From a virus: a stretch of DNA of 64,000 nt. The notes under the pieces are model-generated. The model ran no database searches. It worked only from the letters and a program-made list of their open reading frames with translations, and was not told where the DNA came from. The DNA lies in the IMG/VR virus record IMGVR_UViG_3300027977_000027, positions 9,021-73,020 of that record; one strand, 5' to 3'. Shown piece by piece: positions 7,514 through 46,227 of this stretch; position 1 is the stretch's first letter; every line of letters begins with the position of its first letter. A program made the translations under genes and the position numbers.

Positions 7514-7870
7514 GGGGATATAAAGGTATTGACTGAATATAGTCGTAATTGGTAAGCATGTAGTGCTAGATGGAAGCACTTTAATCTCGCTATTAACACT
7601 TTTAGATGGCAACGATTTTGTTGTATCCGAAAATTTCCTTACCGAAGCTGCTTGCAGTTTCGCTGGAGAGCTTGCTGTAGCCTAATATAGCTGATAGTGA
7701 TAATTCACTTCATCGTGGTATGTTCCACGGCATGATGGTAGACCATTAGGGTCTCTTGATTTCCTTCACAAATAATCAAGATATTTTGTTTCGTTAGAAA
7801 ATGAGACTAAACATGTAGAAAGTCTTTCAAGAGTATTCAACACATGGGTTCGATTCCCATTATCTCCACC
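7514..7870 (+). ncRNA. ssrA: tmRNA
   Basis: 5' GGGGATA...GGTATTGAC; 3' GGTTCGATTCCC-ATTATCTCCACC with G3:U70; tag frame 7608..7685 GNDFVVSENFLTEAACSFAGELAVA*. Confidence 0.9.
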
Positions 7871-7917
7871 GTTGACTTTTTTGTACCTTGCCGTATATTT
7901 ATAATAAAAATAGATAT

Positions 7918-8973: not shown

Positions 8974-9049
8974 GTTCTTTGAATTTTATTGTGTGTTATT
9001 GTTGTATATAAATACTTGACTTAATAAAAATAAGACCTTATATTTTATT

Positions 9050-12778: not shown

Positions 12779-12826
12779 TGTTTATTTTTTAATAAACCAA
12801 GATATTTATATCTATAAACAAATACT

Positions 12827-13444
12827 ATGAAAAAAAGAGAAATTATAACTGAGACCAAAAGAAAATCTTTATTAGCAGATAGAGAAAAAGCCATCGTTGA
12901 GTCATTTGCAAAAACTTTTAACAAAATAAAAAGATTGGACGAAGCTTATGGAATGTCCTTTGAGGATGCCAAAGCCGAAGCAAAAAGAATTTCTGATGAA
13001 GAAGGTGGTGTAGCTCAACACGTAAATCAAGTTGGCGAAGATAAATTTATTGTTTCTGATTTTTTTGACGCTGACACAACAGTGGCTAGCTTTGGAATTG
13101 GAATTGATGAAGCCGAATATTATGACGGTGACGATTATGAACAAGCTTCTAGAAGCATTGAATATGGTATTGACCCATATGCTGAAAGACCATCATTGTT
13201 TGATGGTGTAGATAGAATATCGGTTGCTAGACCAGAATACAATGGCGCAGTAATGAATAGCATATACGGTATATATATCATTTACAAAGATGGTAAACAA
13301 GAAAAAATACATTCAGTAGAAGAGTTTAATGATAAATTTGGTACTGATATACCATTAACAAAAGACCCAAGAGAAGTTGTTTCTTACATTGAAACAAATT
13401 ACCCAGAAGTTACTGTTTATTTGGATGAATTTGATGTATCATAA
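12827..13444 (+). CDS. Hypothetical acidic protein, possibly virion-associated
   Basis: 205 aa ORF preceded by ATATTTATA. Confidence 0.65.
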   Translation: MKKREIITETKRKSLLADREKAIVESFAKTFNKIKRLDEAYGMSFEDAKAEAKRISDEEGGVAQHVNQVGEDKFIVSDFFDADTTVASFGIGIDEAEYYDGDDYEQASRSIEYGIDPYAERPSLFDGVDRISVARPEYNGAVMNSIYGIYIIYKDGKQEKIHSVEEFNDKFGTDIPLTKDPREVVSYIETNYPEVTVYLDEFDVS

Positions 13445-13458
13445 TTTTTTTCAAAAAG

Positions 13459-13553
13459 ACTTGCTTTTTTAAAAAAAGTTTAGTACCTTTGCATAACTTT
13501 TATAAACAAAGACATATTTAATAGAAACAGGGGGAACCCAAAAAAGAAAAACA
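13459..13553 (+). promoter_or_regulatory. Bacteroidota-type promoter and conserved 5' UTR of tRNA array 1
   Basis: acttgc...TACCTTTG; about 75 nt nearly identical to 33148..33224. Confidence 0.75.
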
Positions 13554-13655
13554 ATGAGAAACATTAACATACATATTAATTCGATTAGCATGTGGAGACG
13601 CAATAGTAATCCACTTGAATCGGCTATGTCTGTAAGTTTCTTTAGTGACTTTTAA
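13554..13655 (+). CDS. Putative attenuator leader peptide 1 (33 aa)
   Basis: MRNINIHINSISMWRRNSNPLESAMSVSFFSDF*; codons match the downstream anticodons. Confidence 0.75.
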   Translation: MRNINIHINSISMWRRNSNPLESAMSVSFFSDF

Positions 13656-13680
13656 AAATCACAAACAAACAATAAAGAAG

Positions 13681-13722
13681 AACCCGATTCAGAATAAAAT
13701 CTAAATCGGGTTTTTTGTTTTT
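13681..13722 (+). terminator. Attenuator terminator upstream of tRNA array 1
   Basis: aacccgatt...aatcgggtt with T run; 5' arm also complementary to tgaatcgg at 13616-13623. Confidence 0.8.
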
Positions 13723-13749
13723 TGGTTCATTGACATATTGGTTAAATAC

Positions 13750-13820
13750 ACAGGACACAGGCTTGGTGTCGGTGGGCTCCCCAAAAGCTTCACGAGTTGC
13801 TTCGATTGCAACGTCCTGTG
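13750..13820 (+). tRNA. tRNA-Trp(CCA), atypical
   Basis: Acceptor acaggac/gtcctgt, loop CCCCAAA (C33), weak D arm. Confidence 0.6.
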
Positions 13821-13825
13821 CACAT

Positions 13826-13908
13826 ACACTAGCTCATGGGCGTGACCAACAGACTCCAAATCTGTTCTTAGGATTAAATGGTTGTAGATTCGACTTCTAC
13901 CTAGTGTG
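13826..13908 (+). tRNA. tRNA-Trp(CCA) with long variable region
   Basis: Acceptor acactag/ctagtgt, acaga-CTCCAAA-tctgt, T arm gtaga-TTCGACT-tctac. Confidence 0.75.
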
Positions 13909-13913
13909 CATAT

Positions 13914-14000
13914 GGAAGGTGCCTCGCATGGAGCGAAACTAGTCTTGAAAACTAGGGTGGCGGTGATGAGCCGTCAGGGGGTCGGGTCCTCCACCTTCCT
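13914..14000 (+). tRNA. tRNA-Ser(TGA), divergent T loop
   Basis: ggaaggt/accttcc, ctagt-CTTGAAA-actag, long variable arm. Confidence 0.8.
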
Positions 14001-14007
14001 CTTACAT

Positions 14008-14080
14008 GGTGTTAGTAGCTCAGAGGCAGAGCGCTGGTTTGTGAAGCCAGAGGTCGGGATTTCGAAATTCCTCTAACACC
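14008..14080 (+). tRNA. tRNA-His(GTG)
   Basis: G-1, loop TTGTGAA, C73. Confidence 0.9.
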
Positions 14081-14205
14081 CTCTTAAAATTTAACCGTCA
14101 CCAAACAATGGTTTGGACTCCATGAGTGGGATGCCAGTGAATATGATAATAAACTGGGGCGGTTTAGGGATTGGGAAAATTAAAATAACATTGCGCCATA
14201 CCGAG

Positions 14206-14271
14206 CGAACCTGATAAATTCGATATTCGTAGCTGGTGTTGAAAACGTGAGTTCGAGTCTCACCGTGCCTA
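14206..14271 (+). pseudogene. tRNA-Ile(GAT)-like 3' two-thirds; no 5' acceptor strand found
   Basis: cgaac-CTGATAA-attcg, variable-arm hairpin, canonical T arm gtgag-TTCGAGT-ctcac. Confidence 0.55.
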
Positions 14272-14279
14272 CTAAACAT

Positions 14280-14361
14280 TCATAGGTAGCCTAGAGGCCA
14301 GGCAGCAGACTGTTAATCTGCGGAAGCAATTCCTACGTGGGTTCGATTCCCACCCTGTGAG
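14280..14361 (+). tRNA. tRNA-Asn(GTT) with long variable arm
   Basis: gcaga-CTGTTAA-tctgc, variable arm ggaa-gcaa-ttcc, G73. Confidence 0.85.
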
Positions 14362-14371
14362 CAAATAATAT

Positions 14372-14458
14372 GGTGTGGTGGCAGAGAGGTCGATTTCGAT
14401 AGACTCATATTCTCTTTCCTTACCAAAGGACACACAGATTCGAATCCTGTCCACGTTA
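14372..14458 (+). tRNA. tRNA with CAT anticodon (Met or Ile2), long variable arm, degenerate
   Basis: Loop CTCATAT, variable arm tcctt/aagga, several G:U pairs and mismatches. Confidence 0.6.
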
Positions 14459-14464
14459 TAACAT

Positions 14465-14537
14465 GGTTCCATAGTGTAACGGAAACACACTTCGCTACGA
14501 ACGAAGAGATTTGGGGGTTCGAATCCCTCTGGAACTA
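14465..14537 (+). tRNA. tRNA-Arg(ACG)
   Basis: cttcg-CTACGAA-cgaag cloverleaf. Confidence 0.92.
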
Positions 14538-14545
14538 CAAAATAT

Positions 14546-14617
14546 GGTCTCGGAGCATGATGGATATGCGACATCGTTCTAAGGTGTTCTATGTGGGTTC
14601 GACTCCCATCGAGACTA
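14546..14617 (+). tRNA. tRNA-Arg(TCT)
   Basis: acatc-GTTCTAA-ggtgt; acceptor ggtctcg/cgagact. Confidence 0.8.
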
Positions 14618-14621
14618 CAAT

Positions 14622-14710
14622 GGAGAATTAACTGGGCAGGGTCCCAGACTTATTTGCTAAATAATGTGTGCGTTTAAAAAACGCATGGTTTTCAATTAAC
14701 CAGTTCTCCG
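14622..14710 (+). tRNA. tRNA-Ser(GCT)
   Basis: Loop TTGCTAA, variable arm tgcgttt/aaacgca, G73. Confidence 0.8.
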
Positions 14711-14779
14711 CTTTAAATAACCAATATGTTTTAATTTTTTATAAACATCTTTATATTTATGTATAAAAAGATAAAAGAA

Positions 14780-15166
14780 ATGTTTATACCAAACCACCTA
14801 CATTTGATAGTTAAGGGTAACTTTAAAAACCCACCAACAGAAGTTGATGTTTTAAATAAATGGTTTATCAATTTAGTTGAAAAAGTTAGAATGGTTGTAG
14901 TAGCTGGACCTACTTCAGTTTATGTACATGAAGAAGGCAATGAAGGCTTAACAGGAACCGTAACATTAGCAACTTCTCATGGAAGTTTTCATTGTTGGGA
15001 CAATACAAATCCACCAATGTTTCAATTTGATTTATATTCATGTTCTTGTTTTACTGCTGAAGAGGTTTTAGCGCACTTGGATGAATTTGGTTTAATCAAA
15101 TACGAATATATTTTAATAGATAGAAACGGAGACAAAATGGTTATCATTGAAGATGGCTCAAAATGA
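14780..15166 (+). CDS. speD: S-adenosylmethionine decarboxylase proenzyme
   Basis: GLTGTVTLATSH (self-cleavage Ser), H.W, FDLYSC. Confidence 0.8.
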   Translation: MFIPNHLHLIVKGNFKNPPTEVDVLNKWFINLVEKVRMVVVAGPTSVYVHEEGNEGLTGTVTLATSHGSFHCWDNTNPPMFQFDLYSCSCFTAEEVLAHLDEFGLIKYEYILIDRNGDKMVIIEDGSK

Positions 15167-17926: not shown

Positions 17927-18000
17927 GGTCCCGTAGCTTAGTTGGATAGAGCAACAGATTTCTAATCTGTGGGTCAGGGGCCCGAATCCCTTCAGGTTAC
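17927..18000 (+). pseudogene. tRNA-Arg(TCT) pseudogene
   Basis: Intact D and anticodon arms; T loop CCCGAAT and three acceptor-stem mismatches. Confidence 0.7.
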
Positions 18001-33123: not shown

Positions 33124-33218
33124 ACTTGACAATATCAAAAAAAGTTTGTACCTTTGCATAACTTTTAAAAACAAAGACATATTTAATTAAAACGGGGAAA
33201 CCCAAAAACAAAAAAAAA
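33124..33218 (+). promoter_or_regulatory. Promoter and conserved 5' UTR of tRNA array 2
   Basis: TACCTTTGCATAACTTTT...ACAAAGACATATTTAAT...GGGGAAACCC; homologous to 13484..13560. Confidence 0.75.
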
Positions 33219-33311
33219 ATGAGAACTTTTGCTAACATATTCGATTTTGCGTTTGAATTCGCAGCCGAGGCCGATAAAAGCCTAGGGGTCAAGTATATTG
33301 TCAAAAGTTAA
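33219..33311 (+). CDS. Putative attenuator leader peptide 2 (30 aa)
   Basis: MRTFANIFDFAFEFAAEADKSLGVKYIVKS*. Confidence 0.75.
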   Translation: MRTFANIFDFAFEFAAEADKSLGVKYIVKS

Positions 33312-33335
33312 CATAAAAGTTAAGTGTGTGATAAG

Positions 33336-33370
33336 AAGCCTGACCATAAAAAGTCAGGCTTTTTTGTTTT
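33336..33370 (+). terminator. Attenuator terminator upstream of tRNA array 2
   Basis: aagcctgac-cataaaaa-gtcaggctt with T run. Confidence 0.8.
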
Positions 33371-33379
33371 AAAACATAT

Positions 33380-33452
33380 GGGACGGTAGCTCAGTTGGTA
33401 GAGCAGTGGCCTGAAGAGCCACGTGTCGCTGGTTCGATTCCAGCCCGTCCCA
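33380..33452 (+). tRNA. tRNA-Phe(GAA)
   Basis: gtggc-CTGAAGA-gccac cloverleaf. Confidence 0.95.
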
Positions 33453-33457
33453 CGCAT

Positions 33458-33529
33458 GGCACCATCGAATAGTGGTTAGTTCGTCTGGTTTTCAACCAGA
33501 AAACAGGGGTTCAATTCCCCTTGGTGCTA
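33458..33529 (+). tRNA. tRNA-Glu(TTC)
   Basis: tctgg-TTTTCAA-ccaga. Confidence 0.92.
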
Positions 33530-33577
33530 CAAAATGTTACGGTAGACTAGCCTCTAGTCAACGTTGGGTCCTTATAT

Positions 33578-33654
33578 GGAATATTAGTAGAGTTGGTTAC
33601 AATATCGCACTGTCACTGCGAAGGTCACGGGTTCGAATCCCGTATATTCCGCCA
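33578..33654 (+). tRNA. tRNA-Asp(GTC)
   Basis: tcgca-CTGTCAC-tgcga, G73, encoded CCA. Confidence 0.93.
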
Positions 33655-33746
33655 AAAATGGTAATCGTTATTTTTGTGGTGGCCACCACGAATAATGAAA
33701 ATCCATACTAAGTAACGAATGATGGCCATCAATAGTTATTTAGTTA

Positions 33747-33817
33747 GAGGATGTAGTTTAATTGGTAAAACTCTGGCGTGGAGCCAGAAGTTGTGGGTTC
33801 GAACCCCATCATCTTCC
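33747..33817 (+). tRNA. tRNA-like gene with shortened anticodon loop (His-like, or Pro TGG)
   Basis: gaggatg/catcttc, ctggc-GTGGA-gccag, C73. Confidence 0.6.
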
Positions 33818-33823
33818 AAATAT

Positions 33824-33896
33824 GGGGTGCCATGTACCAAGGCTGGCGAGAGACCTTTGCAAGGTTTCTGGTAGGATTCGATTTCCTAGCGCTCCA
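33824..33896 (+). tRNA. tRNA-Ala(TGC)
   Basis: agacc-TTTGCAA-ggttt, G3:U70, A73; atypical D arm. Confidence 0.8.
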
Positions 33897-33897
33897 C

Positions 33898-36590: not shown

Positions 36591-36714
36591 TGGGAGGTGG
36601 CCAAATTGGTAAAGGCAGCGGTAATGCAAAAAGTTTAATCTGTATAAGATTAAGTTCAGCAAAAAAAAAGCTAATGGAAACCGCCATTTGTAGGTTCGAG
36701 TCCTACTCTCCCAA
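36591..36714 (+). ncRNA. tRNA-like RNA with 57 nt in place of the anticodon loop
   Basis: Acceptor tgggagg/tctccca, D arm gcc/ggc, stem gcggt/accgc, T arm gtagg-TTCGAGT-cctac. Confidence 0.7.
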
Positions 36715-45321: not shown

Positions 45322-45554
45322 AATAAAAACAGTATATTTGCAATTATAAATTATAAGTATGAGTAAACAAACGATTAGTGTTGGCGTAGCCAATGAAAAA
45401 GAAAAGAACATTGAAGTTGAAGAACTAAAAACATGGACACCTAAAAACATCAGTTATTTTAGTGACACCGTGTACTTTAAACATGATGGCACTTATTTTT
45501 CCATGAAAAGATTAGATTACGACAAAATATTTAACCAAAAAATGGATAAGTGAT

Positions 45555-45860
45555 ATGAAAAAACTAAATTTATTTTTAATTTTTGGTATGTTGGTTGTTT
45601 TATCAATGTCTGGCTGTGCAGATGCTATTAATGTTAAAGATTGTATTGAACCATCTGAACATGTTTATGGTTTTTGGGGTGGTACATGGCATGGGGTCAT
45701 TAGTGGGTTTTCATTCATTGGTAGTTTGTTTAGTGATGATATTGCTGTATATGCTATTAACAATAACGGTAGCTGGTATAACTTTGGTTTTGTGGGTGGT
45801 TTGTTTCTTATTTTAAGAATATTTGCACAGATAATAAAAAGCTTAAGTAAAATAAAATAA
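45555..45860 (+). CDS. Membrane lipoprotein-like protein
   Basis: MSGC lipobox-like; GFWGGTWHG...NNGSWYNFGF. Confidence 0.7.
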   Translation: MKKLNLFLIFGMLVVLSMSGCADAINVKDCIEPSEHVYGFWGGTWHGVISGFSFIGSLFSDDIAVYAINNNGSWYNFGFVGGLFLILRIFAQIIKSLSKIK

Positions 45861-45867
45861 TATTAAT

Positions 45868-46227
45868 ATGAGTGTAATTAAGTTTGATTTAAAAAAAGAG
45901 CATGTGCTTTTACTAAAAAATTTACGTTGGAGCGTAAATCATCAAGGCATAATTAGTGGTGTTGCCGATGAGGGTGATGAAACTGCGCCACCATTTGGTG
46001 AATATAATATTCACGATGCTATCAATTTAATATTGAATGGTAAACCTAAAGATATTGATTTGTTGACACACGATTCTTTTTTTACATATAAGGATGAAGA
46101 AATTGCTGAATGGGATAAGTTATATTCAGAACTACCAACGGCTTTAGAAATAATTTTATTCAATGGTAATTTTGAGTTAGGTACATATAAAACAAAATTC
46201 CATCTTCGTGATTGGAAAAAACTATAA
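45868..46227 (+). CDS. Hypothetical protein
   Basis: 119 aa ORF. Confidence 0.65.
   Translation: MSVIKFDLKKEHVLLLKNLRWSVNHQGIISGVADEGDETAPPFGEYNIHDAINLILNGKPKDIDLLTHDSFFTYKDEEIAEWDKLYSELPTALEIILFNGNFELGTYKTKFHLRDWKKL

Follow-up and report, generated by a model that had tools for sequence, protein, structure and literature searches.

Putative leader-peptide attenuators ahead of the tRNA arrays of a freshwater giant-phage clade

Among the leader-peptide attenuators of enterobacteria, which include trpL, hisL and pheL, some are multivalent: the thr leader carries threonine and isoleucine codons, and the leaders of ilvGMEDA and ilvBN carry codons for isoleucine, leucine and valine. Attenuation also controls E. 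coli pheST, and in the T-box riboswitch the choice between a terminator and an antiterminator reports tRNA charging and controls genes of the same amino-acid pathway. Little has been established about the regulation of tRNA genes by the phages that carry them, and such arrays are usually treated as constitutive cargo. Here we analyze two tRNA arrays in a stretch of 64,000 nucleotides (hereafter the window; positions 9,021 to 73,020 of the virus record IMGVR_UViG_3300027977_000027), which is part of a 73-kb viral contig estimated to be 21% complete. Each array lies behind a compact cassette formed by a promoter, a short open reading frame (ORF) and an intrinsic terminator. We consider it likely, from the sequence, that each cassette attenuates transcription in the ribosome-mediated, leader-peptide manner, its cargo being the set of tRNAs that its own sensing codons need.

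The general logic of leader-peptide attenuation is laid out in PMC1183508. As in the enterobacterial leaders, the cassettes combine a short ORF containing a run of regulatory codons with an intrinsic terminator, and several amino acids are represented in each leader. Also as in those leaders, the 5' strand of the antiterminator (here called region 2) would be masked by a ribosome reaching the end of the ORF. The enterobacterial leaders have, in addition, an upstream segment that holds region 2 when there is no translation, and folding suggests a candidate for such a segment here. The cassettes differ from the enterobacterial leaders in that the cargo consists of tRNA genes and not of biosynthetic enzymes, so that the sensed molecules would be the product itself; in that up to 7 amino acids (9-10 anticodons) are addressed per leader; and in that four parallel channels, covering all 20 amino acids, are carried by a virus. 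There is no sequence similarity either: the Rfam family Thr_leader (RF00506) scored 18.2 bits at 13639-13720 against a gathering score of 55, a match that we rejected as a terminator-like chance match, as we did the other weak matches (miRNAs and others) obtained in Rfam E-value mode.

The closest logic appears to be that of the multivalent thr and ilv leaders together with the leader peptides found upstream of hisS paralogues. In bacilli, a histidine leader peptide lies upstream of hisS/hisZ paralogues, according to PMC2965389. In the hisS/hisZ and pheST leaders, a peptide rich in one amino acid gates the gene for the corresponding part of the decoding machinery, as proposed here; there, however, the gated genes encode aminoacyl-tRNA synthetases, a single amino acid is involved and the genomes are cellular, whereas here tRNAs would be gated in sets. 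The T-box also chooses between terminator and antiterminator, but it binds the tRNA directly through one specifier codon and without a ribosome, whereas the sensor here is a multi-codon ORF, predicted to be translated, and no T-box motif is present (no Rfam match to it in 13400-14800 even at E-values up to 10).

The nearest published tRNA array with conditional expression seems to be the trn operon of Anabaena sp. PCC 7120, a long array induced under translational stress (PMC8421152, PMC10272220). Its control is at the promoter, where tandem 9-nt direct repeats covering the -10 box and the start site are bound by the RHH repressor TrcR (PMC8421152, PMC10272220). That operon resembles the present arrays in being an accessory tRNA array, normally off there and on when translation is impaired. 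It is unlike these cassettes in its promoter control, in having no codon-matched ORF and in residing on a cellular megaplasmid; the strings 'leader', 'attenuat' and 'terminator' have 0 occurrences in PMC8421152. A full-text literature search, covering few subscription journals, returned no case of a leader-peptide attenuator that acts on tRNA genes, whether of phages or of cells, which agrees with the remark in a first-pass annotation of this window that its author knew of no described attenuator with the sensed tRNAs as its output.

Codon-matched cassettes in front of two tRNA arrays

The first-pass annotation had proposed for array 1 the order promoter, 33-codon ORF, terminator and tRNA genes. 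That order was recovered: the cassette occupies about 260 nt (13461-13723) and array 1 follows directly (Table 1). The promoter site matches a motif, TTG-N-GTAYMTTTG, of which the window has 27 copies on the + strand and 3 on the - strand, and these counts make it the regular promoter of the genome. We take the TTG/TAccTTTG site to be a putative Bacteroidota-type -33/-7 promoter, and the host, judged from the motif alone, is probably a member of the Bacteroidota. A 39-nt stretch that runs from the promoter into the A-rich 5' leader (13484-13522) recurs once in the window, at 33149-33187 (2 matches, with 0 expected from 100 shuffles). No further copy of the promoter motif was found on the + strand between 13491 and 16612, nor inside array 1 or array 2 of the window.

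The ORF is present at its predicted place, and its codons 2-19 specify only arginine, asparagine, isoleucine, histidine, serine, methionine and tryptophan, as the annotation had read them. All 18 of these codons can be read by array-1 anticodons, with ATA granted to the CAU tRNA, which is an assumption. As a chance control we used 2027 ATG-initiated ORFs of 20-45 codons from five related records. The longest uninterrupted readable run among them was 10, compared with 18 in leader 1, and none contained a window with 12 of 12 codons readable. Behind the ORF, the hairpin at 13681-13712 with its T-run to 13723 bears out the predicted intrinsic terminator (-13.6 kcal/mol, z -3.7, equalled by 0 of 200 shuffles), and the same hairpin was returned by a pattern scan for terminators.

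The tRNA content that had been assigned to array 1 held in most, but not all, of its members. ARAGORN with default settings called five tRNAs (His GTG, Asn GTT, a CAT tRNA, Arg ACG and Arg TCT) and with relaxed settings added Trp CCA (13750-13821), Ser TGA (13914-14001) and Ser GCT (14622-14711). The second Trp gene remained below threshold, being seen in Rfam E-value mode as a tRNA-like match at 13825-13908 with the anticodon loop CU-CCA-AA (30.8 bits, gathering score 47); another match below gathering score covers 13914-13999. The putative Ile(GAU) remnant showed weak local similarity to the tRNA-Ile of relatives and was not confirmed, and the Trp gene at 13750 has a C where U33 is usual. 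From its sequence, array 1 of the window looks partly decayed. The Asn GUU tRNA (82-83 nt) and the CAU tRNA (87-89 nt) have long extra arms (14280-14459).

Cassette 2, some 20 kb downstream, aligns near-identically with cassette 1 up to codon 2 and then diverges. In the best window of its leader, 10 of 12 codons are readable by the Phe, Glu, Asp and Ala tRNAs of array 2, a score that none of the 2027 controls matches; on codon set 1 the same leader reaches 3 of 12. The antiterminator of this cassette folds at -17.3 kcal/mol (z -3.4, equalled by 0 of 200 shuffles), and tRNA-Phe begins at 33380, just past the terminator. Cassette 2 thus appears to be an internal replicate, with promoter and 5' untranslated region shared with cassette 1 and a peptide that fits its own array.

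A blastn comparison with 50,697 phage records matched single tRNA genes only, over at most 4% of the query, and Rfam at gathering score found tRNA and tmRNA only in the window.

Table 1. Positions of the two cassettes and arrays in the window, and composition of the four cassette classes in relatives
Feature	Position	Strand	Details
Cassette 1 promoter	13461-13491	+	TTG 13461-63, 20-nt spacer, TAccTTTG 13484-91
A-rich 5' leader	13492-13553	+	common to cassette 2; 39-nt repeat
Leader ORF 1	13554-13655	+	MRNINIHINSISMWRRNSNPLESAMSVSFFSDF; ATG ORF, 33 codons + stop; 34 distinct versions in 42 contigs
Sensing block (codons 2-19)	13557-13610	+	R N I N I H I N S I S M W R R N S N
Region 2, antiterminator 5' strand	13615-13623	+	TTGAATCGG; pairs with 13684-13692
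Antiterminator hairpin 1	13615-13692	+	stop codon (13653-55) in apical loop; -17.6 kcal/mol, z -3.0
Intrinsic terminator 1	13681-13723	+	9-bp stem + inner 3 bp, then T6-G-T6
tRNA array 1	13750-14711	+	Trp CCA, Trp-like CCA, Ser UGA, His GUG, (Ile-like remnant?), Asn GUU, CAU tRNA, Arg ACG, Arg UCU, Ser GCU
Cassette 2 promoter	33126-33156	+	TTG 33126-28, TAccTTTG 33149-56
Leader ORF 2	33219-33311	+	MRTFANIFDFAFEFAAEADKSLGVKYIVKS; Phe/Ala/Glu/Asp-rich peptide
Antiterminator 2	33287-33345	+	GGTCA.GT with GC.TGACC; stop codon inside upper stem
Intrinsic terminator 2	33336-33370	+	-13.6 kcal/mol, z -5.2
tRNA array 2	33380-33897	+	Phe GAA, Glu UUC, Asp GUC, Pro UGG, Ala UGC
Class 1 cassette			His/Trp/Ser/Ile/Asn/Met/Arg/Arg/Ser; leader MRTINIHMISISNWRRNS...
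Class 2 cassette			Phe/Glu/Asp/Ala; leader ..NIFEFDFFAAEADF..
Class 3 cassette			Cys/Val/Leu; leader ..ALLLCLLVV..VGYVC
Class 4 cassette			Pro/Gln/Tyr/Thr/Gly/Lys; leader MKTTYMTYQPKQYTKGGQPQ..

Competing helices downstream of the sensing codons

The proposed switch depends on whether region 2 or the terminator's own 3' arm pairs with the 5' arm of the terminator. The complementarity announced for cassette 1, between TGAATCGG (13616-23) and the terminator 5' arm CCGATTCA (13684-91), was verified on the sequence, and the long hairpin that was expected to span the stop codon is the minimum-energy fold of 13611-13703, with 1 of 200 shuffles folding as well.

Relatives of the cassettes were retrieved among viral contigs by patterns taken from flanking protein and DNA, and they fall into four array classes, each behind a small ORF and a terminator. 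The class-1 pattern found 42 viral contigs with 34 distinct leaders; the patterns for classes 2-4 were too narrow (8, 5 and 9 contigs), and 20 leaders of these classes entered the duplex test below. An in-frame ORF from ATG to stop is present in all 34 + 20 leaders. In 33 of the 34 class-1 leaders region 2 starts at codon 21 or 22, just past the sensing codons. Besides the pair seen in the window, the combinations of region 2 and terminator arm include TGAGTCGG with CCGACTCA, TGTCGGG with CCCGAC, GGTCAAGG with CCTTGAC, GAATTCGG with CCGAATT and GAGACG with CGTCTC. In class 1 the cognate duplexes average -10.63 kcal/mol, compared with -6.82 for 742 non-cognate pairs, and when terminators were permuted among leaders the cognate mean was reached in 0 of 5000 trials. 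The leaders of classes 2-4 gave the same picture (-11.34 kcal/mol cognate, -7.63 non-cognate, 0 of 5000 permutations).

Covariation was examined across the 34 distinct class-1 leaders. RNAalifold, run on a MAFFT alignment of the truncated leaders, returned 0 pairs, the subfamilies being out of structural register, and both helices were subsequently named by hand on alignment A2. On that alignment 79.7% of the cells of the antiterminator helix are paired, compared with 64.8% after shuffling; 34 cells are changed on both sides, compared with 13.6; and the covariation score is 0.380 against 0.169, a value reached by 0 of 500 shuffles, although these shuffle controls overstate independence because the leaders are related by descent. 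About ten different combinations of region 2 and arm are present despite this kinship. When the helix was slid along the alignment as a control, 23-51% of cells were paired, the highest value (51%, score 0.234) being that of the +1 slide, which reflects the register shift between subfamilies. In the terminator helix 92.9% of cells are paired and 8 of 8 pairs have changed on both sides. Both helices therefore covary, as the first-pass annotation had suggested should be checked, and since columns 141-146 take part in both, the two structures are mutually exclusive.

To follow the choice between them we used the folding state before the terminator 3' arm is transcribed, with a ribosome footprint moved along the ORF of 21 leaders (20 distinct) from all four classes. 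In 21 of 21 the terminator 5' arm is predicted to be paired (P 0.6-0.9) with the ribosome at codons 1-17, and its pairing falls to P 0-0.5 beyond; for cassette 1 of the window the values are approximately 0.6 and 0.2. Without any ribosome, the unconstrained fold of 13495-13725 has region 2 paired upstream and the terminator formed (z -5.1), and upstream pairing of region 2 is predicted in 34 of 34 leaders (mean P 0.82, a value that carries no shuffle control).

As a separate observation, every one of the 34 class-1 leaders has an unvarying ATG directly behind region 2 (A2 columns 73-75; window 13626-13628), in a neighbourhood whose peptide is unconserved.

Four cassette classes and the evolution of their leaders

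The records G001-G005 and G007 were read whole and G008 in part; G005 (368 kb) and G007 (288 kb, with terminal repeats) are rated 100% complete. Across the four class sets every one of the 20 amino acids is represented once, the exception being array 2 of the window, which also holds Pro. In G005, scored with its own ARAGORN calls and strict wobble, each of the four leaders is highest on its own array (16, 9, 9 and 15 of 19 codons for classes 1 to 4), and the control ORFs scoring at least as high as the leader, with the leader itself included, number 1, 35, 32 and 1 of 1550. When the comparison is made among the 97 units of G005 that consist of an ORF followed by a terminator, the leaders rank first on sets 1, 3 and 4 and share first place on set 2. 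The arrays of G007 belong to classes 1 and 4 only, and among its 90 ORF-terminator units only class-1 and class-4 leaders were found, with nothing leader-like scoring on sets 2 or 3. Arrays and leaders thus match in kind, suggesting that they are gained and lost together, and the expectation that homologous leaders would track array content was borne out in the four classes.

In five cassettes (G005 classes 3 and 4, G008 classes 2 and 3, and cassette 2 of the window) the first tRNA starts 2-15 nt past the T-run. Since the window arrays have no promoter motif inside, read-through would be the route to the tRNAs, and a strong terminator placed between the only promoter and the only cargo is sensible only if it is conditional.

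The way in which the class-1 leaders have diverged also points to the codon set. Within the sensing block 545 of 576 codons belong to the class-1 set, compared with 181 of 491 in the rest of the ORF, although much of the invariance of the block was imposed by the search pattern, which itself fixed part of it. Where the block varies, one member of the set takes the place of another, the residues exchanged being Ser(AGY), Ser(TCG), Asn, Ile, Met and His: one position reads AGC, AGT, TCG, AAT or ATT, and another ATG, AAT, AGC or ATT. The window has I-N-S-I-S-M-W where a close relative has M-I-S-I-N-S-W, so that the order is shuffled and the set is kept. Both Ser tRNAs sit in the class-1 array, and a Ser position switches between the AGY and TCG boxes; this swap alters the RNA sequence while amino acid and array stay the same, and so points to decoding. 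The N-terminal halves are conserved as peptides across the 42 contigs, whereas the C-terminal halves (PLESAMSVSFF.., HHNGQGML.., HQVSGMSNCEGGTEV, PGGSGMSNTVQGVI) are not.

Several other features were noted around these arrays. A conserved ORF of about 55 amino acids (MAEQRLKKLG.. or MEEELVRTLG..) separates the first tRNA from the class-1 terminator in L003 (- strand, 534-363), L010 (4722-4890) and G001, and is deleted in the window. ORFs resembling homing endonucleases (HNH-like and GIY-YIG-like, with motifs recognized by eye) occur within or ahead of arrays, upstream of tRNA-His in L007, L008 and L009 and at 45437-46107 in G003; a tRNA fragment precedes the class-1 ORF of this kind. The class-1 leader was also met on two short contigs, L145 and L146, from metagenome bins carrying the labels Saccharibacteria and Gammaproteobacteria; both contigs are probably phage DNA binned in error, and we drew no host from them.

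Elsewhere in the window, a tmRNA (7514-7871, tag GNDFVVSENFLTEAACSFAGELAVA) stands behind the same promoter motif (7436) and is also found in relatives. A 124-nt tRNA match at 36591-36714, with a large insertion in the anticodon region, scored 43.6 bits in Rfam and received no ARAGORN call. A lone tRNA at 17930-17996, detected by Rfam only and with the anticodon UCU as read by eye, follows a 100-aa ORF and not a leader cassette, an arrangement repeated in L013. Among relatives, G001 (100009), G002 (103137) and G005 (228804; record coordinates) have a tRNA whose anticodon is CUA, an amber suppressor to which ARAGORN gives the label Pyl, raising the question of stop-codon recoding in the clade. 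On the - strand of G004 (about 12798-12911, counted on the reverse complement), tandem MKKVC repeats make up a small ORF that has a terminator behind it and no tRNA nearby.

A proposed tRNA homeostat and its alternatives

The layout, the codon matching, the competing and covarying helices and the co-occurrence of leaders with arrays are all read from sequence; from them we infer that the leader is translated, that the ribosome is coupled to RNA polymerase, that read-through is conditional and that a physiological signal triggers it, the candidates being phage or host tRNA supply, tRNA charging and attack by nucleases. Transcription would start at the strong phage promoter and a ribosome would load on the A-rich leader. 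If the codons of the block were decoded fast, the ribosome would cover region 2 and then reach the stop codon inside the antiterminator, the terminator hairpin would form, and transcription would stop just before the first tRNA gene. If a tRNA of the set were scarce or uncharged, decoding would be slow and the ribosome would stall in the block, leaving region 2 free to pair with the terminator 5' arm before the 3' arm is made, so that RNA polymerase would enter the array. For an untranslated leader, the prediction is that upstream sequence sequesters region 2, so that the default state would be off. The phage would then probably make a tRNA block only when the codons of that block are read slowly. 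As the output consists of the sensed tRNAs, the circuit would be a negative-feedback homeostat, and the lineage would possess four such channels that jointly address all 20 amino acids. Every prediction of the ribosome-mediated attenuator, as first proposed for array 1, that could be tested at the level of sequence agreed with what was found.

A number of points weigh against this reading. The support for it is computation on sequence, and transcription-translation coupling in the host is an assumption. Among the sequencing runs listed for these sequences none is recorded as RNA, and three that had been guessed to be RNA, with small shares, are probably DNA. At equilibrium the terminator is favoured (P >= 0.5) at every ribosome position in 14 of 21 leaders, which means that the switch must be kinetic and dependent on coupling; we did not use equilibrium occupancy as support, and the terminator of the trp attenuator is likewise said to stay favoured at equilibrium. 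To the kinship of the leaders and the constraint imposed by the search pattern, both given above, several mismatches must be added. In the window, leader 1 keeps its Ile and Trp codons although tRNA-Ile survives at best as a remnant and one of the Trp genes carries C33; array 2 holds tRNA-Pro, for which leader 2 offers no codon. In 24 of the 34 class-1 leaders the third codon is ACA (Thr), with tRNA-Thr residing in another array, and the match of region 2 is weak (-5.3 kcal/mol) in one of the 34, L060. Under strict wobble UGC does not read the GCC codons that are conserved in class 2, and the Val GAC and AAC tRNAs have no codon in the class-3 leaders. In some relatives, moreover, an ORF of 50-60 amino acids or a homing endonuclease separates the terminator from the tRNAs (182-893 nt).

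The attenuator could be real and yet read general translation capacity or the timing of infection instead of its own tRNA supply, the inputs being ribosome availability, global amino-acid starvation or a late loss of coupling, and codon bias serving only to tune sensitivity. We regard this as unlikely, although some points favour it: by its layout alone the cassette would react whenever the leading ribosome slows, the classes have in common the N-terminal M-R/K-T codons as well as several codons of the block, and the Anabaena array is induced by general translational stress, according to PMC8421152. Such a sensor, however, needs no class-specific codon sets, whereas four classes carry four sets, each matching its own array; substitutions in the block stay inside the set, and leaders are absent where arrays are absent. 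That the leader is nothing but a fixed leaky terminator, setting a low constitutive transcription of the array next to an unrelated or untranslated ORF and an incidental alternative hairpin, is very unlikely. The equilibrium preference for the terminator in 14 of 21 leaders is in keeping with this reading, but the reading leaves unexplained the codon match of the window leaders (0 of 2027 controls) and its recurrence in four classes, the set-preserving substitutions and the covariation between region 2 and the terminator arm.

Two further explanations were considered. The leader RNA might sense tRNAs directly and without translation, either in the manner of a T-box or through an antiterminator-binding protein; T-box leaders also pick between terminator and antiterminator by tRNA status. 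We give this slightly less credence still, because neither a T-box nor any other Rfam leader family is found here at gathering score, the sensing element is an in-frame ORF in every leader of the four classes, and the switch between Ser AGY and TCG at one position keeps an amino acid and not an RNA motif, which points to decoding. Least probable of all, in our view, is that the small ORFs encode functional micropeptides whose position beside tRNA genes is coincidental. The conservation of the N-terminal halves as peptides fits that idea, as does the Leu/Val/Cys-rich, hydrophobic class-3 peptide, which resembles a signal or lipoprotein leader; the C-terminal halves, by contrast, are unconserved as peptides and nevertheless complementary to their own terminators, residue order is shuffled while the set is kept (INSISMW and MISINSW), and composition tracks the array in four classes.

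Extended from the cassettes to the clade, the leader-peptide attenuator leads to a broader proposal, towards which we lean with some reserve: that freshwater giant phages of a widespread clade (42 viral contigs, the largest 368 kb) operate a closed-loop tRNA homeostat with four channels, in which four operons covering all 20 amino acids would each be gated by their own multivalent leader peptide, measuring in real time the decoding speed of exactly that codon set. No earlier attenuator would then be known that yields the very tRNA it senses. Leader-peptide attenuation would thereby extend to a virus, probably of a Bacteroidota host, and to RNA genes as cargo. A practical consequence for annotation is that the label 'hypothetical protein' should be avoided for a small ORF that stands with a terminator ahead of a phage tRNA array, and the cassettes, being compact, modular and available in four natural specificities, are possible sensors of the decoding rate of chosen codons. 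For the phage, the homeostat would mean that decoding speed is measured per codon set and only what is short is topped up: if this is true, the phage could make up for tRNAs that are missing from the host, are no longer charged there or fall to the host's anticodon nucleases, and would stop once the supply is restored. The proposal thus bears on why giant phages carry near-complete tRNA sets and on how phages may answer host defences that target tRNA.

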